From Lewinellaceae bacterium (GTDB lineage: Bacteria; Bacteroidota; Bacteroidia; Chitinophagales; Saprospiraceae), in contig JACJYE010000003.1 in assembly GCA_020636255.1 (NCBI GenBank), positions 125,538 through 189,537 of the forward strand: 64,000 nucleotides of DNA, in the 5' to 3' direction. The position numbers were made by a program, and so were the translations under genes. Of this stretch, positions 28,996 to 40,493 are shown in pieces; within the stretch, counting starts at the first letter, position 1, and each line of letters opens with the position of its first letter. The notes below the pieces were generated by a model, which worked only from the letters and a program-made list of their open reading frames with translations, did not search any database and had not been told where the DNA came from.

Positions 28996-29039
28996 TTAAT
29001 TTTCCGAAAACCGTGAAGCGCACATACATGGGCCTGCTA

Positions 29040-29567
29040 TCAGCCTGTATGACGGCTCTCTGCTATTATCCTAAGGTGTTCCAGATGGTGGCGGCTATGC
29101 CAGTCGTAAAGCGCCAGGAATTCGAGCAGCGATACATCTCTGTGATGCTCGGGATGGAAACCGGTGCGTTCCCACTGCGGGCCGGAAATACCCTCCAGCA
29201 GGCTCACCCAACGCCGGTGCAGGCCGTCCAGGATGGACAAGGAAGCTTCAACCGGTGCGAAATAAGTATCTTGGAGCTCCGCCCACAATTTCTCCTCATA
29301 AGTTTTCAAAACGGGTTTTTCTTCCGTGAGTATCAATTTGAACCTTATATAGGCATTCATGTGGCTGTCGGCAATATGGTGTATGAGCTGCCGGGCAGAC
29401 CAGCCGCCGGGGCGGTACGACTGTTCCAGTTGCGCTTCTGTGAAATGTTCCACTACTCCACGCAAGCGCTCCGGCAGCCGGCGTATCGTATCGATGTAGC
29501 CGTTTCTTTGCGCTTCGCCATAAGGCTGATATTTAAATTCTCCGATCGGATATTGCTGTTCGTACAT
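29040..29567 (-). CDS. DinB/YfiT-family (DinB_2) putative metal-dependent hydrolase/thiol transferase.
   Basis: 175 aa with 'QLIHHIADSHMNAYIRFK' and 'YDWHSRHHLEHL' His triad characteristic of the DinB_2 family. Confidence 0.85.
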   Translation of the reverse strand: MYEQQYPIGEFKYQPYGEAQRNGYIDTIRRLPERLRGVVEHFTEAQLEQSYRPGGWSARQLIHHIADSHMNAYIRFKLILTEEKPVLKTYEEKLWAELQDTYFAPVEASLSILDGLHRRWVSLLEGISGPQWERTGFHPEHHRDVSLLEFLALYDWHSRHHLEHLRIIAESRHTG

Positions 29568-29872
29568 TATGAATGGTTGTTTTTATTTTTTTAAAACACC
29601 TGTATTGCGTTTAACTTGTTGGCTTTCAAAACAATAAAACAACATTGTAATTTTTATTCTATCGGCAATAAATAGAAAAATATTTAAATCGAACTAAAAG
29701 AAACACCCAAACCCCCTGACAAAACTAACATTGTCTTAATCGCTTTTTCATTTGTTTCTTTTCGTTTTTTTTGCAATTAAAAAAAAATGCCGTTCATTTG
29801 CATCCAATTTAATACTAAAGAGCGTTGTATTTATAATGCTTCTTTCTATTTTCTAAAAAATGTGATCCTACT

Positions 29873-30637
29873 ATGAATTTTTCCAATTTAACACCTTTAG
29901 AAATACAAGACCTGATTAATTCTTACCGCTCTGAGTTGCGCAAGCTGGAATTCCAGGTACAGCATACGGCCGGGCTGCTTCAACAACTGGAAACGGCCCT
30001 TGCCAAAGCGGACACCGTGCTGGTCAATACGCCAACCGTTACGAGCGCTCCTGCTCAGGCAGAGGCAAAGCCTAGGCGGGGCCGCGGTAGGGCCAAGCAG
30101 GCCGGCGAGCAAGCCGCACCCAAAACCAAACCCGCAGGCCGCAGAGGCCGCCCGCGTAAAGCCAAGCCCGAAACTGCTGCGAAAGAAGCCCCCCAGGCCA
30201 CTGCTGAGGTAACTGCCGAACCACAAGCAAAAGCCAAAGCCCCCAGAGGCCCGAAAAAAGCCGGCAAAGCGCCGAAGGCAGCAGCGAAAGCAAAAAAAGA
30301 AACGGCAGCGAAAAAAGAACCAAAGGCAAAAGCAGAAGGGAAAAAAGCTCCGGGAAGGCAAGAACGCCTCTCCCCTATTGACAACCTGGTGATCGAAAGC
30401 CTGAAAGGCCAGCAAAAAGCGCTGATCACCAGCGAATTTGTAGATATTATCAAACAAAACCCCAGCATCAAGAGCGGCGAGGCCCAGGTAAAGGTGAAAT
30501 TAAACCGCAGCCTCCACAAACTGGCCAATAAGAAAGGTATGTTGGTTAAAGTGGAATACCCTGGCCGCGGCTACGCTTACGCCCTCAACGAATGGGTGAA
30601 CAATAAGGGCGAGCTGCCGAAGAAATACGCTCATTAA
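29873..30637 (+). CDS. Histone H1-like Lys/Ala/Pro-rich DNA-binding protein with AT-hook, N-terminal coiled coil and a C-terminal globular domain.
   Basis: 'GRRGRPRKAKP' AT-hook, long 'AKAKAPRGPKKAGKAPKAAAKAKKETAAKKEPKAKAEGKKAPG' H1-tail-like segment, and a C-terminal ~80-aa folded domain 'VKLNRSLHKLANKKGMLVKVEYPGRGYAYAL'. Preceded by a 300-bp AT-rich island. Confidence 0.7.
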   Translation: MNFSNLTPLEIQDLINSYRSELRKLEFQVQHTAGLLQQLETALAKADTVLVNTPTVTSAPAQAEAKPRRGRGRAKQAGEQAAPKTKPAGRRGRPRKAKPETAAKEAPQATAEVTAEPQAKAKAPRGPKKAGKAPKAAAKAKKETAAKKEPKAKAEGKKAPGRQERLSPIDNLVIESLKGQQKALITSEFVDIIKQNPSIKSGEAQVKVKLNRSLHKLANKKGMLVKVEYPGRGYAYALNEWVNNKGELPKKYAH

Positions 30638-30826
30638 TCCTATGCCAGGATTTTAGGTTAGGGATTAGATGGATTGCCAGGATTTGTGGAGGGGGCCAAA
30701 CCTGATGCATACCATTTGCCCTGAGAAATAGCATTAGATAAACATGAGTCATGTTTTTTTCTGTTGCGGCTTGCAAGGAAGGGCCGGAATGGTTAATATT
30801 GTAGTCCGTTATCGATACGGGCATTT

Positions 30827-30899
30827 GCGGCAGTAGCTCAGTTGGTAGAGCATCAGCTTCCCAAGCTGAGGGTCGCGAGTTCGAGTCTCGTTTGCCGCT
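30827..30899 (+). tRNA. tRNA-Gly (anticodon CCC).
   Basis: Cloverleaf by hand: acceptor gcggcag/ttgccgc (one G-U), D-arm gctc-agttggta-gagc, anticodon arm tcagc-ttCCCaa-gctga, variable loop gggtc, T-arm gcgag-ttcgagt-ctcgt, discriminator T. 73 nt, no encoded CCA. Confidence 0.85.
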
Positions 30900-30906
30900 C
30901 ATAATA

Positions 30907-30950
30907 AACAGGGCGCTGTTGGCCTCAACAGCGCCCTGTTCAGTTTTTTT
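30907..30950 (+). terminator. Rho-independent terminator following tRNA-Gly.
   Basis: 14-bp perfect stem 'aacagggcgctgtt' / 'aacagcgccctgtt', loop 'ggcctc', then 'cagttttttt'. Confidence 0.85.
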
Positions 30951-30973
30951 CACCCTATAACCCTTTACTATCC

Positions 30974-31129
30974 ATGCAAGAACTCGAATTAACGCTTACC
31001 GTCGAAGAAGTCAACCAAATCCTGGAAGCCCTTGGAAATCAGCCCTTCAAATCAGTGTTCGCCCTGATCGGGAAGATACAACGCCAGGCAGGAGAACAGC
31101 TCCAGGGTGGCGAGCTGCCGCCGGCATAG
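30974..31129 (+). CDS. Possible small (51-aa) protein; below ORF-track threshold.
   Basis: ATG at 30974 gives 'MQELELTLTVEEVNQILEALGNQPFKSVFALIGKIQRQAGEQLQGGELPPA*' with genome-typical codon usage. No homology recognised. Confidence 0.3.
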   Translation: MQELELTLTVEEVNQILEALGNQPFKSVFALIGKIQRQAGEQLQGGELPPA

Positions 31130-31175
31130 CCTATTATTCCCGCGGGTTTGAACAAACCCGCGGGGATAAAAAGGC

Positions 31176-32825
31176 TTACTTCTCCTTCTCCTCCGCCTTC
31201 GGCTTCTCTCCATTCTCCACCTGTTCCGTGTTCTTCGCCAGGTATTCGGGCAGGTTCAGGCCCGACTGGTTCATGAACTCGCTCAGGGCAGGGATGGATT
31301 TGAACAGGCCGCTCAGGAAACTGGAAGTCCCCTGGCCGTCGCCACCGTCGAAAACGGTCACCTTGTCGAACTTGATGTTCTTGATCGCCTCAGCCTGTAT
31401 CTTGGCCAGTTCCGGTATCTTGTCCACGAGCAGCAGGCCGATAGCAGCCTGCGCGTTGCCGTTTGCGGCATCTACGAGCTTCTGGAAACCGGTGGCTTGT
31501 GCATCCAGCACCTTTTTGATCCCTTCAGCCTGGGCCTGGTAATGGGCCAGCACAGCTGATGCCTCCCCTTCTGCTACTTTGCGCTTCTGCTCCGCCTCCG
31601 CTTCCGCGGCGATCACGGTCTTTTCCTTATTGATCTGGGACTGTACCACCTCGTTGGCGCGGCGGGCGGCCAACTCACGATCCTTGCGGGCATCTTCGGC
31701 CTCTTTCTGGGCCAGGAAGGCCAGCTTCTGAGCTTCTGCCTCTGCTGTTTGTTCCGCTACGATAGCGCTCTTGTTGGCTTCGGCCACTCTTTGCCTGCGT
31801 TCGGCGTCCGACAAGGCGATCTGCACATCCGCCAGGTTCTTGCCCTTGGTCGCTTCGGCCTGGGCGTTTTTTTCGCCGATCTCGGCAGCAGAATTCGCAG
31901 CGGCCACCTTGATACGCCGTTCTCTGTCCGCTTCCATCTCGCCGATCTCGGCGGCCGTATTCGCAGTGGCCACTCGGGTACGGCGGTCTCTGTCGGCCTC
32001 TTTTTCACCGATCTCAGCTTCCGATTCCGCAGCGGCCACCAGGGTACGCCGCTCCTTGGCCGCTTCGGCCTGGCCAATAGCGCCGGTGCGTTCCTCTCTG
32101 GCCACCTTCACCTTGGCTTCGTTGATGGCCTTGGCGGCAGCCTCCTGCCCCAGGGCCTTGATGTAACTCGACTCATCGTGAATATCCGTCACGTTGACGT
32201 TGATGAGGTCGAGGCCGATCTTGTGAAGCTCATTGCCCACGTGCTCATATACAGAGGTGACGAACTTGTCGCGGTCGGCGTTCAGTTCCTCAATATCCAT
32301 ATTGGCGATCACCAGGCGCATCTGGCCCATGATGATATCGTGCGCCAGCGAGCGGATCGTTTCCTTGGGCATGCCCAGCAGGCGCTCGGCAGCCGCTTTC
32401 ATCAAGACCGGCTCATTGCTGATAGCGACCGTAAACTGGGCAGGCACCGATACCCGGATGTTCTGTTTGGACAATGCATCCTGCAGGTTCACATCGATCG
32501 ACATCGGCTGGAGGTCGAGGTACTGAAAGTCCTGAATGACAGGCCATACAAAGGCCGCGCCGCCGTGGATACATTTGGCGCTGCCCTGTCCCGTTCTACC
32601 GTAAATCACCAGGATCTTATCGGACGGGCAACGGCGGTAACGCGAAATGAAGAACCAGAGCAGCATTAGGAAAACGGCAATGACCACCAGTATAGGTAGT
32701 ACGATCGACATGCTGCTGCCCATCAGCCCGTCATCGTATTGGGCAAGCAGCGGTGTGGCGAGCAAGAGTATAGCCCCCAGCATCAGGAGCCTGGTAACAC
32801 GAAAAGTGAGAATGCGAGCTATCAT
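31176..32825 (-). CDS. Flotillin-like SPFH/Band-7 protein (YqiK-type).
   Basis: N-terminal membrane anchor, SPFH core 'ILVIYGRTG...FVWPVIQDFQYLDLQPMSIDV', and long Ala/Glu-rich flotillin coiled-coil repeats 'AEIGEKEADRDRRTRVA / AEIGEMEADRERRIKVA'. Confidence 0.9.
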   Translation of the reverse strand: MIARILTFRVTRLLMLGAILLLATPLLAQYDDGLMGSSMSIVLPILVVIAVFLMLLWFFISRYRRCPSDKILVIYGRTGQGSAKCIHGGAAFVWPVIQDFQYLDLQPMSIDVNLQDALSKQNIRVSVPAQFTVAISNEPVLMKAAAERLLGMPKETIRSLAHDIIMGQMRLVIANMDIEELNADRDKFVTSVYEHVGNELHKIGLDLINVNVTDIHDESSYIKALGQEAAAKAINEAKVKVAREERTGAIGQAEAAKERRTLVAAAESEAEIGEKEADRDRRTRVATANTAAEIGEMEADRERRIKVAAANSAAEIGEKNAQAEATKGKNLADVQIALSDAERRQRVAEANKSAIVAEQTAEAEAQKLAFLAQKEAEDARKDRELAARRANEVVQSQINKEKTVIAAEAEAEQKRKVAEGEASAVLAHYQAQAEGIKKVLDAQATGFQKLVDAANGNAQAAIGLLLVDKIPELAKIQAEAIKNIKFDKVTVFDGGDGQGTSSFLSGLFKSIPALSEFMNQSGLNLPEYLAKNTEQVENGEKPKAEEKEK

Positions 32826-32837
32826 GTTTTGGTTTTT

Positions 32838-33404
32838 TTATTCTCCTAAAGGCGTCACGACAACGAGATCTTCCTTTGCTTCCACGACCAGCACTTTCTC
32901 GTGGGTGCCGATAGCCTGGCCGTCCTGGGAAATAGCCGTGACCTCCCGGTTGGCGTTCTCGATCTGCACGACTACCCGGCCTTTTCCGCCGGCAGGTATC
33001 GGCACGTATACCGTACCCGTTTTACCTTCAGCCTGCCACAGGTGCCAGTTGCCCTCCTCCTGGTTTTTTAATAGCCAACGGAAGAACCAGGTCAGCAATA
33101 GTACGGCCGCAACGCCGGCCAGCAACGCCGTAAGCGCTACGAGGGCCCACGACCAGGATGTGTTCAGAAATATCGCACGTGCAGTGAACGCACCGACCGA
33201 AATAAAGGTGAGCAGTGTTTTGAGCAGGCCGAGTGAACCGGCGCCGGCGTCCACACCAGCGGCATCTATATCTCCTCCACCTGCATCGACATCCACGTCG
33301 CCGCCTATTTCCATCCCACTAAAGATTGAGATCAGCAGCAGAAGGATGAGCAACCCGCCGGCCAAAGTACCGGCCCAAAACAAAAGGTTCAGCATATCTT
33401 GCAT
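32838..33404 (-). CDS. NfeD/YqiJ-like membrane protein (operon partner of flotillin).
   Basis: Two N-terminal TM regions separated by a Gly/Asp/Ala-rich linker, and a C-terminal OB-fold-like 'GTVYVPIPAGGKGRVVVQIENANREVTAISQDGQAIGTHEKVLVVEAKEDLVVVTPL'. Immediately upstream of and co-oriented with the flotillin gene. Confidence 0.65.
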   Translation of the reverse strand: MQDMLNLLFWAGTLAGGLLILLLLISIFSGMEIGGDVDVDAGGGDIDAAGVDAGAGSLGLLKTLLTFISVGAFTARAIFLNTSWSWALVALTALLAGVAAVLLLTWFFRWLLKNQEEGNWHLWQAEGKTGTVYVPIPAGGKGRVVVQIENANREVTAISQDGQAIGTHEKVLVVEAKEDLVVVTPLGE

Positions 33405-33707
33405 AGCAATGCTCTTAGTAACAATCCGACGACTTCTTGAACACTACTTAGTGTAGTGAATATCCATCTTTTAGGCTGTTTTTCCAAACTTGATTCTACG
33501 AAGCTGCTCCGCCAGACGTCGAAGTACGTTTTTTTTCAGTACAGATGCCGAAGCGGCGGAGCCGCCGTCTCACCCGGAAGGCCTCAAAAATATAGCGCCC
33601 GTGAAGCCGTAACTCCACGGGCGCAATTCTTAAAAAGTAGCTTCTGATTAATTTGAAACCTTCAATTTAGGATATTGATATGGGAAAAGCAAGCCCCGGG
33701 CTTAGTT

Positions 33708-34688
33708 TCAGCCGAAAGCCCCCGCCTTCCACGGCTTGCTGAAAGCATTGGTAGGTTCCTGAAAAGGCTCTCCTGCCTGCTTGGAAAGCGGCAAAGACGC
33801 CATCCTTTCCGGGCTTTCAGCCGTTAGGCCATACACTTTGGCGAAGCGTCTCGTAGCGGACATGATGTTGAAACGAATGGATTCGAAACCGCTTTTCAGG
33901 TCGATGATGCCGTATGAACTAGGGTCGAAATAGCGGTTGAGGCGGCTCTGGATGCAGTAGCGGCCCATTACCCAGGGATAGGCCCACAGCCAGATGTGAA
34001 AAGGCGCCGAAGCGATAAAGGCCAGCACATGGTGCCAGCGGTGGCGGCCCTGGACAAAGGCGTAATGATGGGCCAGCACATGGCGCCCCAGGTGGTTGAG
34101 GTGAATGAAGTAAAAAAGCTTTGCATTTCTGGGGGTCCGAAAGGCGGCCTGTAAAAAGGCCTTCTCAGCGGAAACGCCCTTACCTTTCCATCCCAGGTCG
34201 CGAATGGCCATCCTTTTGATCGTAATATCGCCCTGTTTGCCGAGCTGTTCATGCAGTTGGTCCCACAGGAAGCCGCCCAGCCGTTCCGTCAGTTCCTCCA
34301 CATCCTGTTGGGTGGCGCCTTCCTCAAGCCCTACAGGAAAAACGGTATGGTACACCAGCTTTCCATAGCGAAAAAAAAGCCGCCCGCCCTTGAAATGGTC
34401 CCGCGGTTCTTTATCCAGATAGCGGTCGACAAAATAAGCCACCGCCGCGAACAGCATAGCGGCCAGCGCGATGACGGCAAGTGGAATAGCCAAACCCGCA
34501 GCCAGGTCTGCCTCCCAGCTTGCCCGATAGTGCGGTAGCCGGTTGAGGGCAAAACAGATCACAGCATACAGGCTAATGAAAAAGGCCGTTTTTAGCAGGC
34601 TTGCCGCCACGTTGCGGAAAGAGAAGTATAGGGCCAGCAAAAGCAGGAATGCCGCCAGGTATTGTATGGCCAGTGAAGTCGCTATCAT
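33708..34688 (-). CDS. Hypothetical polytopic membrane protein with His-cluster motifs.
   Basis: Four N-terminal TM helices, then 'FIHLNHLGRHVLAHHYAFVQGRHRWHHVLAF' (HxxH, HH, HxxHH arrangement). Family not confidently recognised. Start at internal Met 34688; the ORF-track start at 34871 would overlap the next gene. Confidence 0.55.
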   Translation of the reverse strand: MIATSLAIQYLAAFLLLLALYFSFRNVAASLLKTAFFISLYAVICFALNRLPHYRASWEADLAAGLAIPLAVIALAAMLFAAVAYFVDRYLDKEPRDHFKGGRLFFRYGKLVYHTVFPVGLEEGATQQDVEELTERLGGFLWDQLHEQLGKQGDITIKRMAIRDLGWKGKGVSAEKAFLQAAFRTPRNAKLFYFIHLNHLGRHVLAHHYAFVQGRHRWHHVLAFIASAPFHIWLWAYPWVMGRYCIQSRLNRYFDPSSYGIIDLKSGFESIRFNIMSATRRFAKVYGLTAESPERMASLPLSKQAGEPFQEPTNAFSKPWKAGAFG

Positions 34689-34780
34689 AGTATGCCGTTG
34701 TAGTTTTCTCGTTGGGTAAAGGCCCGGGCATACTGTTTTACGGAGCAATCGGGATTTTGTTACCTTCCGGCCTGTTGGCC

Positions 34781-35035
34781 TTAATAATACTTCCTGATCT
34801 TCCGCCGCACGTACACCATGCGCAACCCTCCTATCAGTAATATGACAGGCGCGATAGATAGCAGGAACCACCCCAGGTGGCGGATCTCGTGCAGGGCTGA
34901 CATCTGCAGTATGGCAAAACCCGAGCTCAGGAAAACGATGGCAGTGCGGAAATAAGCGAGGAAAGTGCGCTCATTGGCCAGGCGGGTACGTTCGATGGCG
35001 AGATAGTCGCGTGTGATGAGTGGCTTTTCATCCAT
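34781..35035 (-). CDS. DUF202 (YidH-like) small membrane protein.
   Basis: 'DYLAIERTRLANERTFLAYFRTAIVFLSSGFAI' matches the DUF202 signature (LA.ERT.LAw.RT.l), followed by a second TM helix. Confidence 0.6.
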   Translation of the reverse strand: MDEKPLITRDYLAIERTRLANERTFLAYFRTAIVFLSSGFAILQMSALHEIRHLGWFLLSIAPVILLIGGLRMVYVRRKIRKYY

Positions 35036-35199
35036 GAAAATTCAGTTTTGACAAGATAACCACTACGCCTCTTGAAAAGTTGCCCTTGCAGGCAGTATAG
35101 GCCTTCAATGGCTCATCACAACTGGAGTTTGTTACAAAAAATCTAAAAAATGGGGTTTCCCTTGCATTTCTTTGCGATACCCTATACTTTTGTTCCTTC

Positions 35200-35301
35200 A
35201 TGTATCAGGCCATAGCACATATCATTCCTTCCACTTCCCACAACGGGCCATACGGCGCCGTTTGTGTTGCTATGAGCCGACGTGCACGCCGCCGCCCTTA
35301 G
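35200..35301 (+). promoter_or_regulatory. Candidate arginine-rich leader peptide ORF upstream of the arg operon.
   Basis: ATG at 35200 (alternative ATG at 35272) to TAG at 35299-35301 encodes 'MYQAIAHIIPSTSHNGPYGAVCVAMSRRARRRP*'. Five of the last eight codons are Arg (cga cgt cgc cgc cgc). The ORF ends 169 nt before the GNAT/arg operon start in a 434-bp intergenic region containing a U-tract (35425-35437). Confidence 0.35.
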
Positions 35302-35469
35302 GGGCGCTTCACGATCATATTACCCATCCCGGGTAGGCCTGTTCAGCCTTCCCAATTCCCTGAAAGATAAAACCAGGTTAAAAAGTATTTCATTACGCGC
35401 CCCTTGGGCCATTTCTGAAACAGGTTTTCTTTTTTTCACCTCCGCCACGCCGGTTAAAAACAAGCCTGG

Positions 35470-36078
35470 ATGGCGGGAAAAAACATCGACGCACAAGAGA
35501 TGCAATTCACCATCGAGATCGCCGGCCCGTTACACGAGGCCTACGCAGAAGCCATTTGCGAACTGATCAAAGAATCAGCCAAAGCCCGTGGCACGGGCAT
35601 CGCCGAGCGCCAGCCGGCCTATATCCGCGAGAAGATGCGCCACGGGAAAGCCGTCATCGCCCTGCTCGGCGATACCCTGGCCGGATTTTGTTACATCGAA
35701 TCCTGGAGCCACGGCCGCTACGTGGCCAACTCGGGGCTCATCGTAGCACCCGAATTTCGCAAACACGGCCTGGCCAAGGCTATCAAAAAACAAGCCTTCG
35801 AACTGTCGCGCGACCTCTACCCGGAAGCGCGCCTATTTGGCATCACGACCAGCCTGCCCGTCATGCGCATCAACTCGGAACTGGGCTACAAGCCCGTCAC
35901 CTTCTCCGAACTCACCCAGGATGAGGAATTCTGGAAAGGCTGCCGGTCCTGCCCCAACTTCGACATCCTGGAACGCAACCAGCGCCGCATGTGCCTCTGT
36001 ACCGCCATGATGGCCCCCTCTAAAGTAGAGGATATGCAGTACGACCTGTCGCACCTGGTGGTGAATTCTATCTGGTAA
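35470..36078 (+). CDS. GNAT-family N-acetyltransferase, first gene of the Bacteroidetes-type arginine cluster (probable amino-acid N-acyltransferase).
   Basis: 202 aa with GNAT acetyl-CoA motif region 'RKHGLAKAIKKQAFELS'. Genomic position directly upstream of argG-argC-argD-argF'-argB-argE-argH. Confidence 0.8.
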   Translation: MAGKNIDAQEMQFTIEIAGPLHEAYAEAICELIKESAKARGTGIAERQPAYIREKMRHGKAVIALLGDTLAGFCYIESWSHGRYVANSGLIVAPEFRKHGLAKAIKKQAFELSRDLYPEARLFGITTSLPVMRINSELGYKPVTFSELTQDEEFWKGCRSCPNFDILERNQRRMCLCTAMMAPSKVEDMQYDLSHLVVNSIW

Positions 36079-36082
36079 TCAC

Positions 36083-36122
36083 GCTAGGGATGCCATCCCT
36101 ATAGGGATGGCATCCCTAGCGA
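36083..36122. promoter_or_regulatory. Perfect 40-bp palindrome (two nested 13-bp palindromes) between the GNAT gene and argG.
   Basis: 'cgctagggatgccatcccta|tagggatggcatccctagcg'. Each half contains 'GGGATG(C/G)CATCCC'. It lies 5 bp after the GNAT stop and 13 bp before the argG start. Confidence 0.5.
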
Positions 36123-36135
36123 AACAACATGAAAA

Positions 36136-37347
36136 ATGACTACCTCCAAAGTCGTCCTCGCCTACAGCGGGGGATTGGATACTTCCTTTTGCATCAAATA
36201 CCTCTCCGTCGAAAAAGGGCTGGAAGTGCACGCCCTCACGGTCAACACCGGCGGCTTCAGCGATGAGGAGATCGCCAGTATCGGGGAACGCGCCCGGCAG
36301 CTGGGCGCCGCCAGCTTTAAAGCTGTTGACGCTGTGCCCGAGTACTACGACAAGTGCCTCCGCTACCTCGTCTACGGCAATGTATTGCGCAATAATACCT
36401 ACCCGCTTTCCGTGAGCGCCGAACGGGTGTTCCAGGCGCTGGAGGCGGCGAAATACGCACAGCTCATCGGGGCACAGGCTGTGGCCCATGGCAGCACCGG
36501 CGCCGGAAACGACCAGGTGCGCTTCGACCTGGCCTTCCAGGTATTGGGTAGCAACCTGGAAGTGATCACCCCAATCCGTGAGCTGAAACTGTCGCGCCAG
36601 CAGGAAATCGAATACCTGCAAAAACATGGTATCGACTGGCCCTGGTCCAAAGCCCGGTACTCCATCAACCAGGGCATCTGGGGCACCAGCGTAGGTGGCG
36701 CCGAAACGCTTACTTCCGATCAACCCCTGCCGGAATCAGCCTATCCCTCACAACTAAAGGCCGGCACACCGAAAAAAGTGGCCCTGCAATTCGTCAAAGG
36801 CGAACTCACCGGTATCGACGGGCAGCCTTTCGAACACCCCAGCCAGGCCATCCACGCCCTGCAACAACTGGCCGCACCCTACGCCATAGGGCGCGACATC
36901 CACGTCGGCGACACCATCATCGGCATCAAAGGACGGGTGGGCTTCGAGGCCGCAGCGCCACTCATCATCATCAAAGCGCACCACTTGCTGGAAAAACACG
37001 TGCTCACCAAATGGCAGCAGTACTGGAAAGACCAACTGGCCAACTGGTACGGCATGCTGCTGCATGAAGGCCAATACCTCGAACCCGTCATGCGCAACAT
37101 CGAAACTTTCCTTGAAGATACGCAGCAGAACGTCAGCGGACAGGTGTTCGTACAGCTCCACCCCTACCGCTTCGAACTGCTGGGCATCGAGTCGGCCTAC
37201 GACCTGATGAATAGCGGCTTCGGCCAGTACGGCGAGATGAACAAGGCCTGGACGGGCGATGACGTCAAAGGCTTCACCACTATGCTGGCCAACTCCTTGA
37301 AGATCCATCATTTTGTCAACCACCAAAACGAACAGGGACATGATTAA
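36136..37347 (+). CDS. argG: Argininosuccinate synthase.
   Basis: 'KVVLAYSGGLDTSFCIKYL' PP-loop motif (SGGxDTS). 403 aa. Confidence 0.95.
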   Translation: MTTSKVVLAYSGGLDTSFCIKYLSVEKGLEVHALTVNTGGFSDEEIASIGERARQLGAASFKAVDAVPEYYDKCLRYLVYGNVLRNNTYPLSVSAERVFQALEAAKYAQLIGAQAVAHGSTGAGNDQVRFDLAFQVLGSNLEVITPIRELKLSRQQEIEYLQKHGIDWPWSKARYSINQGIWGTSVGGAETLTSDQPLPESAYPSQLKAGTPKKVALQFVKGELTGIDGQPFEHPSQAIHALQQLAAPYAIGRDIHVGDTIIGIKGRVGFEAAAPLIIIKAHHLLEKHVLTKWQQYWKDQLANWYGMLLHEGQYLEPVMRNIETFLEDTQQNVSGQVFVQLHPYRFELLGIESAYDLMNSGFGQYGEMNKAWTGDDVKGFTTMLANSLKIHHFVNHQNEQGHD

Positions 37348-38296
37348 AGCCGGCATTATCGGCGGGGCCGGATACACCGCCGGCGAACTGATCCGCATCC
37401 TGCTCTGGCATCCGGAAGTAGAGCTGGCCTTCGTACAGAGCCGCAGCCAGGCCGGCAAACCCGTCAGCAGCATCCACCAGGACCTGCTCGGCGACTGCCT
37501 GCTCGCTTTCACCGCCGAACCCAGCTTCGACGTAGATGTGCTCTTTTTTTGCATGGGCCATGGCGAGTCGGTGAAATTCCTGGAAACACACACCCTACCG
37601 GAAAAACTGATCGCGATCGACCTGAGCCACGATTTCCGATGGGCGGAAGGGTACACCTATGGCTTGCCTGAATTGCAACGGGAGGCTATCAGCACGAGCA
37701 CACGCATCGCCAATCCGGGTTGCTTCGCTACCGCCATTCAGCTCGGCCTGTTGCCCCTCGCCAAAGCCAAAGCGCTACACGACGAGGTTCACATACACGC
37801 CGTCACAGGCTCTACCGGAGCGGGACAGTCGCTACAGGATACCTCCCATTTCAGCTGGCGCACCAACAACCTTTCCATCTACAAACCGTTCCGGCACCAG
37901 CACCTGGCAGAGATCAGTAAAAGCCTGCAACACCTGCAGCCGGGGTTTGCCCACGCCCTCAACTTCATCCCCCTGCGGGGCAATTTCACGCGGGGTATCT
38001 TCGCCAGCCTGTATACCAATACCCATTTGAGTATAGAGGAACTCCGACAGCGCTACCAGGAATATTACCAGGGCCACCCCTTCGTACACATCAGCCCCGA
38101 CAACCCTAACCTCAAACAGGTGGCGAATACCAACAAAGCCATACTCTACCTGGAGAAATACGGCGACAAAGTGCTGATCATCAGCCTCATCGACAACCTG
38201 CTTAAAGGCGCTTCCGGCCAGGCCGTTCAGAATATGAACCTCGCCCTGGGCCTGAGCGAAACGGCTGGCCTGAGGCTGAAGGCAATGGCTTTTTGA
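37340..38296 (+). CDS. argC: N-acetyl-gamma-glutamyl-phosphate reductase.
   Basis: 'MIKAGIIGGAGYTAGELIRILLWHPEVEL' NAD-binding N-terminus and 'NPGCFATAIQLGLLPL' active-site Cys block. Overlaps the argG stop by 8 bp. Confidence 0.93.
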   Translation: MIKAGIIGGAGYTAGELIRILLWHPEVELAFVQSRSQAGKPVSSIHQDLLGDCLLAFTAEPSFDVDVLFFCMGHGESVKFLETHTLPEKLIAIDLSHDFRWAEGYTYGLPELQREAISTSTRIANPGCFATAIQLGLLPLAKAKALHDEVHIHAVTGSTGAGQSLQDTSHFSWRTNNLSIYKPFRHQHLAEISKSLQHLQPGFAHALNFIPLRGNFTRGIFASLYTNTHLSIEELRQRYQEYYQGHPFVHISPDNPNLKQVANTNKAILYLEKYGDKVLIISLIDNLLKGASGQAVQNMNLALGLSETAGLRLKAMAF

Positions 38297-38356
38297 ATGT
38301 TGGTTACGGAATGTCGTATGCGGCCTCCTGTCCATGAGGCCTAAAAAACACAAACC

Positions 38357-39508
38357 ATGAAATTATTCGATGTATACCCCCTCTTCGACATCCAGCCCGT
38401 GCGGGGCAAAGGGTGTTATGTTTACGATGAAAAAGGCCAGCCCTACCTCGACCTGTATGGCGGCCATGCCGTCATATCCATCGGCCACGGCCACCCGCAT
38501 TATGTGCAACAGGTGAAGGCCCAGCTGGAAACGCTGCCTTTTTACTCCAATTCCGTACAAAACCCGCTACAGGAATCGCTCGCGCTAAAGCTGGGCCAGC
38601 TGTCAGGCTGTGCGGAATACCAGCTGTTCCTTTGCAATTCCGGCGCTGAAGCTAATGAGAATGCGCTCAAGCTGGCCTCCTTCCGCAACGGCCGCAGCAA
38701 GGTGATCGCCTTCCGGCAGGGCTTCCACGGCCGCACCTCGGCAGCGGTGCGGGTGACCGACAACCCCGCCATACAGGCCGTGATCAACCACGGGTTCGAC
38801 GTGCTGTGGCATGAACTCAACGATACCGAAGGTGTACAGCAAAGCCTCGCCCAGGGCGATATCTGCGCCGTGATCGTTGAAGGCATCCAGGGTATCGGCG
38901 GCATTTACGTACCTGAGCCAGCTTTTCTGCAGGCCATCAAAAAAGGCTGCGAAGAACACGGCGCGGTACTCATCCTCGATGAGGTGCAGTCGGGCTACGG
39001 GCGCAGCGGGCAATTCTTCGCTTTTCAGCTGGCCGGCATCGAGCCCCACCTGATCACGGTGGCCAAGGGCATGGGCAACGGCTTCCCCATCGGTGGCGTG
39101 CTCATCCACCCGTCGTTCGAAGCAAAACATGGATTACTGGGCACCACCTTCGGGGGCAGCCACCTGGCCTGTGCTGCCGGGCTTGCGGTGCTTGACGTGA
39201 TCGAATCCGAACAACTGATGCAAAACGCTATAACGGTAGGCAACTACCTGAAACAGGAACTGGTAAAATTCGATCAGGTGCGGGAAGTACGGGGAGAGGG
39301 GTTGATGCTGGGCGCCACCTTCGATTTTCCGGTGGGCGCCCTGCGAAAGGCACTGCTGTTCGAAGAACACGTCTTCACCGGTTCGGCTTCCTGCCCCCGG
39401 ACGCTGCGCCTGCTGCCACCCCTTAGCCTGAGCCGCGAAGAGGCTTCCCGCTTCCTGGAAAAGCTGTCGGCCGTTCTTTCCAAAATGCTGAAAGCCTCAA
39501 CGACATGA
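38357..39508 (+). CDS. argD: Acetylornithine/succinylornithine aminotransferase (class III PLP aminotransferase).
   Basis: 'YLDLYGGHAVISIGHGHP', 'LILDEVQSGYGRSGQFFAF' (PLP-Lys region). Confidence 0.93.
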   Translation: MKLFDVYPLFDIQPVRGKGCYVYDEKGQPYLDLYGGHAVISIGHGHPHYVQQVKAQLETLPFYSNSVQNPLQESLALKLGQLSGCAEYQLFLCNSGAEANENALKLASFRNGRSKVIAFRQGFHGRTSAAVRVTDNPAIQAVINHGFDVLWHELNDTEGVQQSLAQGDICAVIVEGIQGIGGIYVPEPAFLQAIKKGCEEHGAVLILDEVQSGYGRSGQFFAFQLAGIEPHLITVAKGMGNGFPIGGVLIHPSFEAKHGLLGTTFGGSHLACAAGLAVLDVIESEQLMQNAITVGNYLKQELVKFDQVREVRGEGLMLGATFDFPVGALRKALLFEEHVFTGSASCPRTLRLLPPLSLSREEASRFLEKLSAVLSKMLKASTT

Positions 39509-40452
39509 AGCAGTTCACCTCCGTGCACGACGTAGCCAACCCCAAAGCGCTGGTGGAGAGCGCCCTCAAGCTCAAACATGCGCCGGTGGGCAGCCTCAAA
39601 GGCATCGGCGCCGGTAAAACCATCGTGATGTTGTTTTTTAACCCTAGCCTGCGCACCCGCCTGAGTACGGAAAAAGCGGCGCTAGAGCTGGGTATGTACG
39701 TCATCGAATACAATGCCGGCCAGGGCTGGCAGCTGGAGTTCGAAGACGGGGCGGTGATGGACGGCGATAAGGCCGAACACATCAGAGAAGCCGCCGCGGT
39801 CATCAGCCAGTACGCCGACATCATCGGTATCCGCACCTTCCCCACCCTGGCCGCCCGGGAGCGCGATTATTCCGATTTCGTTTTACGACAGTTCATACGC
39901 CACGCTACGGCGCCGGTCATTAGCCTGGAATCGGCCATCCGGCATCCTCTGCAATCGCTTGCTGATTGGGTAACTTTGGAAGAATACCGCCCGGCCCACA
40001 GGCCAAAAGTCGTACTGACATGGGCGCCACACCCGCGCGCGCTGCCACAGGCCGTGGCCAACTCTTTCGTAGAATGGATGAAAATGGCGGATGTGGAACT
40101 CGTTGTTACCCATCCCAAAGGCTACGAACTTGCCAATGAATTCAGCAGTGGACTGGCCATCGAATACAACCAGGACAAGGCCCTGGCCGGCGCCGATTTC
40201 GTTTACGCCAAAAACTGGTCGTCGTACCGGGAATACGGCCAGATCCTGAATCAGGATATTTCCTGGATGATCACGCCGGAAAAGATGGCGCATACCAACA
40301 ACGGCAAGTTCATGCACTGCCTGCCGGTGCGCCGCAACGTGATCGTGGCCGACGCCGTGCTCGACAGCCCGGCCTCGCTGGCCATCCAACAGGCGAACAA
40401 CCGGGCCTATGCTGCTATGGCCGTGCTCAAGGATATTTGCGAGGCGCTGTAA
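39505..40452 (+). CDS. argF: N-acyl-L-ornithine carbamoyltransferase (Bacteroidetes ArgF'-type transcarbamylase).
   Basis: 'MLFFNPSLRTRLSTEKAA' carbamoyl-phosphate-binding S(T)RTR motif, 'HCLPVRRN' ornithine-site motif. Unusual N-terminus typical of AOTCase/SOTCase rather than classical OTC. Confidence 0.88.
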   Translation: MKQFTSVHDVANPKALVESALKLKHAPVGSLKGIGAGKTIVMLFFNPSLRTRLSTEKAALELGMYVIEYNAGQGWQLEFEDGAVMDGDKAEHIREAAAVISQYADIIGIRTFPTLAARERDYSDFVLRQFIRHATAPVISLESAIRHPLQSLADWVTLEEYRPAHRPKVVLTWAPHPRALPQAVANSFVEWMKMADVELVVTHPKGYELANEFSSGLAIEYNQDKALAGADFVYAKNWSSYREYGQILNQDISWMITPEKMAHTNNGKFMHCLPVRRNVIVADAVLDSPASLAIQQANNRAYAAMAVLKDICEAL

Positions 40453-40493
40453 AAAACGATACTATTGTATAACCGGAACGCACACGACGTAGC

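Follow-up and report, generated by a model that had tools for sequence, protein, structure and literature searches.

We analyzed the region upstream of an arginine biosynthesis (arg) operon in a 64,000-nucleotide stretch of a Lewinellaceae bacterium genome (assembly GCA_020636255.1, contig JACJYE010000003.1, positions 125,538 to 189,537 of the forward strand). This whole stretch is referred to as the window, and coordinates are counted from its first base. The region holds a short open reading frame (ORF) that ends in a run of Arg codons, and a first-pass annotation of the window had proposed that this ORF is the ribosome-mediated sensor of an arg attenuator. As far as the sensor is concerned the proposal has held: the predicted role of the ORF as an Arg-specific, ribosome-mediated leader-peptide regulator of the arg operon is well supported by its conservation across family-level diversity.

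The operon consists of a GNAT gene followed by argG, argC, argD, argF', argB, argE and argH, and NCBIfam matches confirm the annotated gene order (GNAT-argGCDF'BEH). The argF' product was identified in the same way as an N-acyl-ornithine carbamoyltransferase. Judged by its closest match among database proteins, the operon comes from a Phaeodactylibacter metagenome-assembled genome. Upstream of the leader, on the opposite strand, is a divergent DUF202 gene, and the intergenic region from its end at 35035 to 35470 is 434 bp. The GNAT gene probably starts at the ATG at 35500 (giving a protein of 192 aa) rather than at 35470, because its homologues are nearly all 190-196 aa long and the alignment begins at the second Met.

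Eighty loci with GNAT homologues of 65-93% identity were fetched from Saprospiraceae, Lewinellaceae and Haliscomenobacter genomes. The 79 usable loci and the window make up the 80 regions compared, and in each of them 300-500 nt upstream of the GNAT gene were inspected. Loci are cited by number where they need to be told apart; L001 and L002 are the nearest relatives of the window (93% GNAT identity). The features of the window discussed below are as follows.

35162-35167, forward strand: -33-like element TTGCAT, 17 nt upstream of the -7 box and in the same place in related loci; a putative assignment from the Bacteroidetes consensus (PMC7366714)
35185-35192, forward strand: Bacteroidetes -7 box TACTTTTG, matching the promoter consensus TAnnTTTG as quoted in PMC7366714
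35200-35301, forward strand: leader ORF from the ORF call, 33 codons plus TAG, peptide MYQAIAHIIPSTSHNGPYGAVCVAMSRRARRRP; homologues in relatives have 21-33 codons
35218-35222, forward strand: first CAUAU motif ("w"), 18 nt after the A of the AUG
35278-35295, forward strand: Arg codon run CGA CGT (GCA) CGC CGC CGC, with position-specific conservation of Arg in relatives
35293-35306, forward strand: hairpin P1, CGCCC-UUAG-GGGCG, -9.9 kcal/mol
35316-35320, forward strand: second CAUAU motif, 9 nt after P1 and 14 nt after the stop codon
35320-35336, forward strand: hairpin x:y (UUACCC / GGGUAG), -6.0 kcal/mol, an alternative to y:z
35331-35353, forward strand: hairpin y:z (GGG.AGGC / GCCU.CCC), present in the minimum free energy (MFE) fold of the window and supported by covariation
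35397-35409, forward strand: distal site GCGCCCCUUGGGC, complementary to 35294-35307 and itself a P1-like mini-hairpin
35425-35443, forward strand: U tract UUUUCUUUUUUU, then CACCUCC; kept in the window, L001 and L002
35441-35477, forward strand: hairpin CCUCCGCCA…UGGCGGG just upstream of the GNAT start, -16.7 kcal/mol, z -2.35
35500-43813, forward strand: the arg operon, from the GNAT gene to argH, proposed here to be under control of the leader

The arginine codon run and the start of the leader

The leader ORF extends from an ATG at 35200 to a TAG at 35299-35301, and five of its last eight codons encode Arg (CGA, CGT and three CGC). These points were verified in the sequence, as were the 33-codon length and the 434-bp 5' region given in the first-pass annotation. 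Arg accounts for 4.6% of codons in the operon genes, and the binomial probability of five Arg codons in a given stretch of eight is ~1e-5. Its conservation in relatives places the run far beyond chance. With an Arg-rich ORF defined by an ATG start, a length of 8-60 codons and at least four Arg among the last 12 residues, a sense-strand ORF of this kind was identified upstream of the GNAT gene in 63 of the 80 regions. The two chance controls, the antisense strand and 1600 dinucleotide shuffles, gave 6 of 80 and 16 of 1600 (1%), respectively. Loss of the Arg run on alignment with related genomes had been set as an outcome that would speak against attenuation, and the run is instead retained.

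The 37 distinct peptide tails have Arg at codon positions -8, -7, -6, -4, -3 and -2, counted back from the stop, in 28, 31, 25, 17, 31 and 37 cases, respectively, and Pro at position -1 in all 37. Examples of tails, each followed directly by the stop codon, are RRRFPRRP, RRNRRVRRRP and RRRLARRRP, along with RLLRRRI in Lewinella and Neolewinella. The Arg codons used are CGC (100), CGT (69), CGA (13), AGA (5) and CGG (2). While the Arg run is retained, the peptide drifts over its N-terminal two thirds and varies in length (21-33 aa), and Arg is preserved across synonymous codon changes, including those from CGN to AGA or AGG. Since CGN and AGR codons are exchanged in this way, selection on decoding is favoured over selection on RNA pairing alone, and to judge from the aligned sequences the pattern is a signature of selection for Arg decoding. 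Leader-peptide attenuation in its broad sense involves a short ORF on the same strand directly upstream of an operon and a conserved enrichment in cognate codons, and both are found here. Two start codons had been offered for the ORF. The start of the 33-aa form is conserved, whereas the ATG at 35272, from which a 9-aa form would be read, is absent in L002, L004 and L006; we therefore reject the 9-aa form in favour of the 33-aa one.

In the window (35200-35290) and often in relatives, the first cluster of Arg codons has complementary sequence in the 5' part of the ORF (e.g., AUGACGAAU:GUUCGUCGU, ACGACGAC:GUCGUCGU and CACGAC:GUCGUG). The mean helix score for this pairing is 13.8, compared with 11.3 in shuffled controls. 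It may form a further hairpin that a stalled ribosome could open.

An ATG that shares its frame with the Arg run, uninterrupted by a stop codon, lies 4-10 nt (mode 8) downstream of a -7 box in 48 of 53 main-type leaders. Because the ATG is only 4-10 nt from the -7 box, the leader ORF appears to be leaderless or nearly so, the transcription start being placed from the spacing of the -7 box. This arrangement is rare in Bacteroides, where ~3.7% of mRNAs have a 5' untranslated region of <10 nt (PMC7366714). A -7 box is also found 7-8 nt upstream of the ATG of a longer, unrelated gene (MSAYFKYL…/MSLYFKYL…; L056 at ~2480 and L058 at ~377, both on the reverse strand), which suggests that leaderless mRNAs in this family may extend beyond the arg leader.

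Two short motifs are precisely placed relative to these features. In 39 of 48 leaders the sequence [AC]ATAT starts 16-19 nt downstream of the A of the ATG, most often at 18 nt. Because the reading frame in which it falls varies, we consider the first CAUAU to be constrained at the nucleic-acid level. The second motif, CATAT, starts 8-10 nt after the 3' arm of P1 in 35 of 55 model-aligned leaders, and exactly 9 nt after it in 29. By inspection, its spacing tracks P1 and not the stop codon in L027, L037, L046 and L052, in which the ORF ends 3' of P1. The background frequency of CATAT is 0.0007 per nt, and the composite pattern of promoter, ATG and CAUAU was found only in arg leaders in the ~590 kb searched. 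A search for a long-range pairing partner of the first CAUAU region gave nothing significant. Candidate roles for the motifs include a pause site, a ribosome-edge element, and a nuclease or protein site.

Conserved RNA hairpins

The two codons before the stop, Arg and Pro (CGC-CC), form the 5' arm of P1, and the stop codon itself lies in the loop, giving the general form CGCCC-NUAG-GGGCG. P1 was found by pattern search in 53 of the 80 regions. Over 54 distinct sequences, 98.5% of alignment cells are paired, and the three innermost pairs are without sequence variation. Loci whose ORF continues through the hairpin to a stop codon just beyond its 3' end (L018, L024, L027, L037, L046 and L057) retain it, and in L060 its place is taken by CUCGCCG-ACCU-CGGCGAG.

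At a fixed offset of ~25 nt beyond P1 are two overlapping, mutually exclusive hairpins. They are formed in the window by a pyrimidine-rich segment x (35320-35325, UUACCC), a G-rich segment y (35331-35338) and a segment z (35346-35353). When this pair of hairpins was searched for at the fixed offset, the mean energy of the weaker arm was -4.1 kcal/mol, compared with -0.36 kcal/mol in dinucleotide shuffles, and the pair beats at least 95% of its own shuffles in 41 of 53 leaders. The leader of the window as a whole folds better than shuffles (z -3.4).

We built a covariance model (R1) of P1 and y:z from six seeds. At E<=0.001 it matches 55 sources, once per locus and always at the leader, and the match in the window has 58.8 bits (E 1.4e-15). 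In the R1 alignment, y:z has compensatory changes in all seven model pairs, and its covariation score is 0.236, compared with 0.095 in shuffles (none of 500 reach the observed value) and at most 0.085 with slid partners. In the same alignment, which was not fitted to x:y, x and y pair in 78% of cells, compared with 31-60% when the partner is slid. The ORF, the Arg run, the promoter-proximal start, P1 and y:z are conserved, non-random features across this bacterial family. Conserved alternative RNA structures do occur, namely the mutually exclusive x:y and y:z at 35320-35353, but not at the helix that the first-pass annotation had proposed.

Two more distant-looking GNAT homologues (P0106 and P0095) belong to the same L037-like clade and have the same leader, and so do not widen its distribution. 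The motif CGNCGCCCNTAGGGGCG, searched for across metagenomes, gave 125 matches, of which 124 were due to chance in GC-rich genomes and L172 alone was a true leader.

Two groups of relatives have leaders of a different form. Those of Lewinella and Neolewinella, which end in …RLLRRRI (L030, L043, L055, L059, L061, L062, L068, L069, L077, L078 and L080), have three conserved hairpins; L062, L078 and L080 represent the cultured species Neolewinella marina, N. litorea and N. lacunae. In the P1-like hairpin, CGCCU-NNNN-AGGCG, the Arg codons AGG-CGA-AGG form the 3' arm, and it is followed by GCUUCC(C)G…CGGAAGC. A long-range GGUACC:GGUACC helix, present as GGUAUC:GAUACC in L069, connects codons 3-6 of the ORF to a site ~80 nt downstream. 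The second group, a clade of seven loci that we term type C (L026, L033, L038, L039, L051, L056 and L058), has a leader ~160-250 nt upstream of the GNAT gene that encodes (M/V)IPQVRSHIESFISxDLxSPRSFQPxR. This peptide is kept through synonymous swaps of Ser (AGT/TCC) and Arg (CGT/AGA) codons. The type C leader contains an internal covarying hairpin, a stop codon placed within a hairpin arm, and an alternative helix CAACGAAG…CUUCGUUG, then GAUUUAUUU, which resembles a classical terminator. RNAalifold applied to this clade was limited by a poor MAFFT alignment of the 2:3 / 3:4 region. From its sequence, the type C leader may be an arrest-type or a classical attenuator.

Closer to the GNAT gene, the U tract proper occupies 35425-35436 (TTTTCTTTTTTT). 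It pairs locally with an A-rich stretch at 35361-35373, without statistical support (z -0.72). The CACCUCC that follows the U tract is identical to the anti-Shine-Dalgarno core, and several clades have a block made up of a U-rich segment and UUCACC 50-70 nt upstream of the GNAT gene. The stem at 35441-35477 becomes CUGCU:AGCAG in L001 and by inspection appears to covary.

An ArgR domain was not found in any of the ten neighbouring ORFs scanned (29013-48485, GNAT gene included), consistent with the earlier statement that no ArgR gene is nearby. No site with three or fewer mismatches to the E. coli-type ARG box consensus TGAATWWWWATTCA was identified in 35045-35499, a Bacteroidota-specific motif not having been tried. 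Matches to this consensus across the window are at the chance level (19 compared with 14.9 expected). The covariance models of Rfam 15 gave no match up to E=10 in 34900-35700. Over the whole window at the gathering score, Rfam identified a tRNA alone; this tRNA-Gly(CCC) at 30827-30900 is the sole Rfam or ARAGORN match in the 64 kb.

A proposed mechanism and its alternatives

We predict that transcription would begin at the AUG at 35200 or within a few bases of it, and that a ribosome would translate the 33-codon leader, the last third of which is the Arg run with its mostly CGY codons. Five to seven Arg codons would be decoded immediately before and inside the 5' arm of P1. If charged tRNA-Arg were scarce, the ribosome would stall in the Arg run; if it were plentiful, the ribosome would proceed to the stop codon in the loop of P1. 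The position of the ribosome relative to P1, x:y and y:z would set whether the polymerase reads through or ends early in the ~200-nt, G-poor leader, and arginine starvation would turn the operon on. The step from stalling to read-through is drawn by analogy with leaders of the his, trp, phe and leu operons and with two sensors that rely on Arg codons, rbfL and speF-orf34. We likewise infer that the leader ORF is translated, for which frame conservation and the synonymous CGN/AGR switches are indirect coding evidence, that stalling is the signal and termination the output, and that the response has the sign given here. We assign a probability of about 75% to this explanation taken as a whole, in which the region 35185-35499 would be the promoter and regulatory leader of the arg operon, and the operon would be attenuated through the leader and switched on by arginine starvation.

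Several results weigh against this reading. No downstream partner for the 3' arm of P1 beats shuffles across the 53 leaders (mean z +0.39), and because that arm lacks a conserved alternative partner, the 1:2 / 2:3 / 3:4 chain of an attenuator cannot be drawn. A tool scan for canonical intrinsic terminators gave no sites in 34800-35700 and a separate scan gave none in the window; candidates in relatives are scattered and non-homologous only. The next 8 nt after x:y and y:z contain on average 3.3 and 2.7 U, respectively, which is near background and speaks against either hairpin as a terminator. When leaders were folded at equilibrium with a mask the size of a ribosome placed on each Arg codon or on the stop, no consistent switch from x:y to y:z emerged. 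Covariation of x:y is not significant on the R1 alignment, to which x:y was not fitted. Finally, the type C leader has only two or three Arg and is conserved as a peptide. We conclude that the effector step is probably not a textbook exchange of terminator and antiterminator.

The first-pass annotation had described the layout as the classic one, with GGGGCGC at the stop codon (35301-35307) pairing with GCGCCCC (35397-35403) and termination at the U tract. The complementarity exists: the helix is in the MFE fold of the window, where it extends to 12 bp, and a long U tract kept in both nearest relatives lies downstream. As a duplex it has -18.5 kcal/mol, compared with -14.3 +/- 2.2 kcal/mol in shuffles, of which 4% equal it, so its margin over chance is slight. 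The meaning given to it is less secure, as neither of the closest relatives, L001 and L002, has the distal site. It probably is lineage-specific for this reason, apparently an insertion or duplication, and GCGCCCCUUGGGC is complementary to P1 because it is itself a small P1-like hairpin. Moreover, GGGGCG is locally paired with the Arg-Pro codons in the invariant P1, no partner better than chance was found for it across the 53 leaders, and the U tract is 20 nt from the distal site without a terminator-type hairpin before it. We therefore regard this pairing as an unlikely basis for control. An alternative that we give substantial weight, though well below even odds, keeps the same Arg-codon sensor but has termination depend on Rho, on pausing or on both, in the manner of the tna, mgtA/mgtCBR and speF leaders. 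The G-poor, C-rich leader would be a Rho loading site, P1 with CAUAU a hairpin-stabilized pause, and x:y and y:z would expose or hide C-rich segments. The C/G ratio of the leaders is 1.5-1.6, compared with 1.0-1.2 in the adjacent GNAT coding sequence, and it is 2.2 in the Lewinella-type leaders, whose tail is extremely C-rich and G-poor. This composition is compatible with a Rho loading site, but base composition alone is weak evidence, and rut and pause motifs are not defined for Bacteroidota. The lack of canonical terminators and of an alternative partner for P1 would fit, as would the exact spacing of P1 and CAUAU (9 nt in 29 of 55), which resembles hairpin-dependent pause geometry. In hairpin-dependent pauses such as the his pause, the hairpin is ~10-12 nt from the RNA 3' end. 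The first CAUAU, 18 nt after the AUG, has no hairpin upstream, however, and it is not evident how a stalled and a released ribosome would differ in their effect on access by Rho. Some actinobacterial leader peptides are likewise without typical terminators (PMC8079986).

The remaining alternatives concern the sensor itself. The nascent peptide ending in RRP, perhaps together with free arginine in the exit tunnel, might halt the ribosome at the stop codon without any codon starvation. Arg at -2, Pro at -1 and the stop are invariant in all 37 distinct tails, C-terminal Pro slows termination and TnaC ends in R-P-stop, and the conservation of the type C leader as a peptide would also be expected from such arrest. 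The invariant Arg and Pro codons are nevertheless explained by their place in the 5' arm of P1. An RRP ending is lacking in eight main-type loci and in all Lewinella-type loci, and outside the Arg run and the C-terminal Pro the main-type peptide is not conserved. A stall at the stop under high arginine would normally give antitermination, the wrong sign for a biosynthetic operon, and we find arrest quite improbable for the main type. The ORF might alternatively be no sensor at all, and the region a structured RNA or DNA operator for a protein or ligand (e.g., a repressor bound to the two CATAT repeats), with the CGY codons a by-product of hairpin arms. Two precisely placed CATAT motifs constrained as nucleic acid, a P1 that is invariant in sequence, as protein sites often are, and the frequent pairing of the 5' part of the ORF with the first Arg codons are in keeping with an operator. 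Such an operator would leave unexplained why 48 of 53 leaders keep the frame and the start position and are free of in-frame stops, and why Arg is kept through CGN/AGR switches and, in Lewinella-type leaders, in another register of the hairpin. With no Rfam match and no ARG box either, it is very improbable.

For the leader-attenuation explanation that we prefer, a more specific version is possible but doubtful. The leaderless Arg ORF, the partnerless P1, the two placed CAUAU motifs and the toggle centred on y may constitute a distinct design for signal transduction, one in which the position of the ribosome would control polymerase pausing and/or access of Rho in place of an exchange of terminator and antiterminator, and which might have replaced ArgR as the arginine sensor in this family.

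Comparison with known systems

Repression by ArgR is the textbook control of arginine biosynthesis, and attenuation is the textbook control for His, Trp, Phe, Leu, Thr and Ile/Val; classical leader-peptide attenuators are also predicted for Cys, Met, Ala and others. Bacteroidota mostly lack Shine-Dalgarno-led initiation and have different promoters. In full-text literature searches, we found no leader peptide of an arg biosynthetic operon described for any phylum. What is new here is the arginine specificity and the occurrence in Bacteroidota, leader-peptide attenuation itself being long known for other amino acids. If our interpretation is true, a conserved arginine leader peptide fills a gap in the amino acid repertoire of attenuators, and Bacteroidota use leaderless sensor ORFs. 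The 55 aligned natural variants would provide a compact system for the coupling of ribosome stalling to transcription in a phylum where attenuation is almost unexplored, and the covariance model and peptide signature could be used to annotate such unannotated small ORFs.

The arg leader shares with trpL, hisL, pheL, thrL, leuL and ilvL of Proteobacteria a short upstream ORF with a run of codons for the end product near its end. As in attenuators of the trpL/hisL type, the stop codon is in RNA secondary structure and competing hairpins lie downstream. It differs from them in its amino acid, in its phylum, in being leaderless or nearly so, and in the absence of a canonical terminator and of a stop-proximal partner. 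Because an intrinsic terminator was sought and not found, we do not file it with the narrow trp/his type. Relative to ArgR/ARG-box repression, the pathway is the same, but the arg leader promoter lacks an E. coli-type ARG box and the neighbouring ORFs scanned lack an ArgR domain.

Arrest peptides offer another comparison. The fungal arginine attenuator peptide, TnaC and SpeFL are likewise encoded by upstream ORFs tied to arginine, ornithine or tryptophan metabolism. Regulation in such systems depends on a ribosome positioned at the stop codon, and TnaC and many similar leaders end in Arg-Pro-stop, as here. They have a conserved peptide and few cognate codons, whereas the main-type arg leader conserves the Arg run and the C-terminal Pro alone, and the expected sign of the response differs.

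Leaderless leader peptides are found in Deinococcus deserti (PMC4007540) and Streptomyces lividans (PMC8079986). Like the arg leader, they start at or next to the transcription start site, and some are without a typical Rho-independent terminator (PMC8079986). These leaders serve genes for Cys, Trp, Leu, Ile, Met, Thr and Ala and for tRNA synthetases, none of them an arg operon (PMC4007540, PMC8079986), and they are without the P1, CAUAU and x-y-z architecture. Slowing of ribosomes at Arg codons reports arginine in rbfL of S. aureus, where it occludes the ribosome-binding site of a biofilm regulator (PMC13009471), and Arg-codon slowing in a short upstream ORF, orf34, controls a polyamine gene at speF of Salmonella (PMC6386406). 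Both rely on a few rare AGA/AGG codons, whereas the arg leader has five to seven Arg codons, mostly CGY, before an arg biosynthetic operon.

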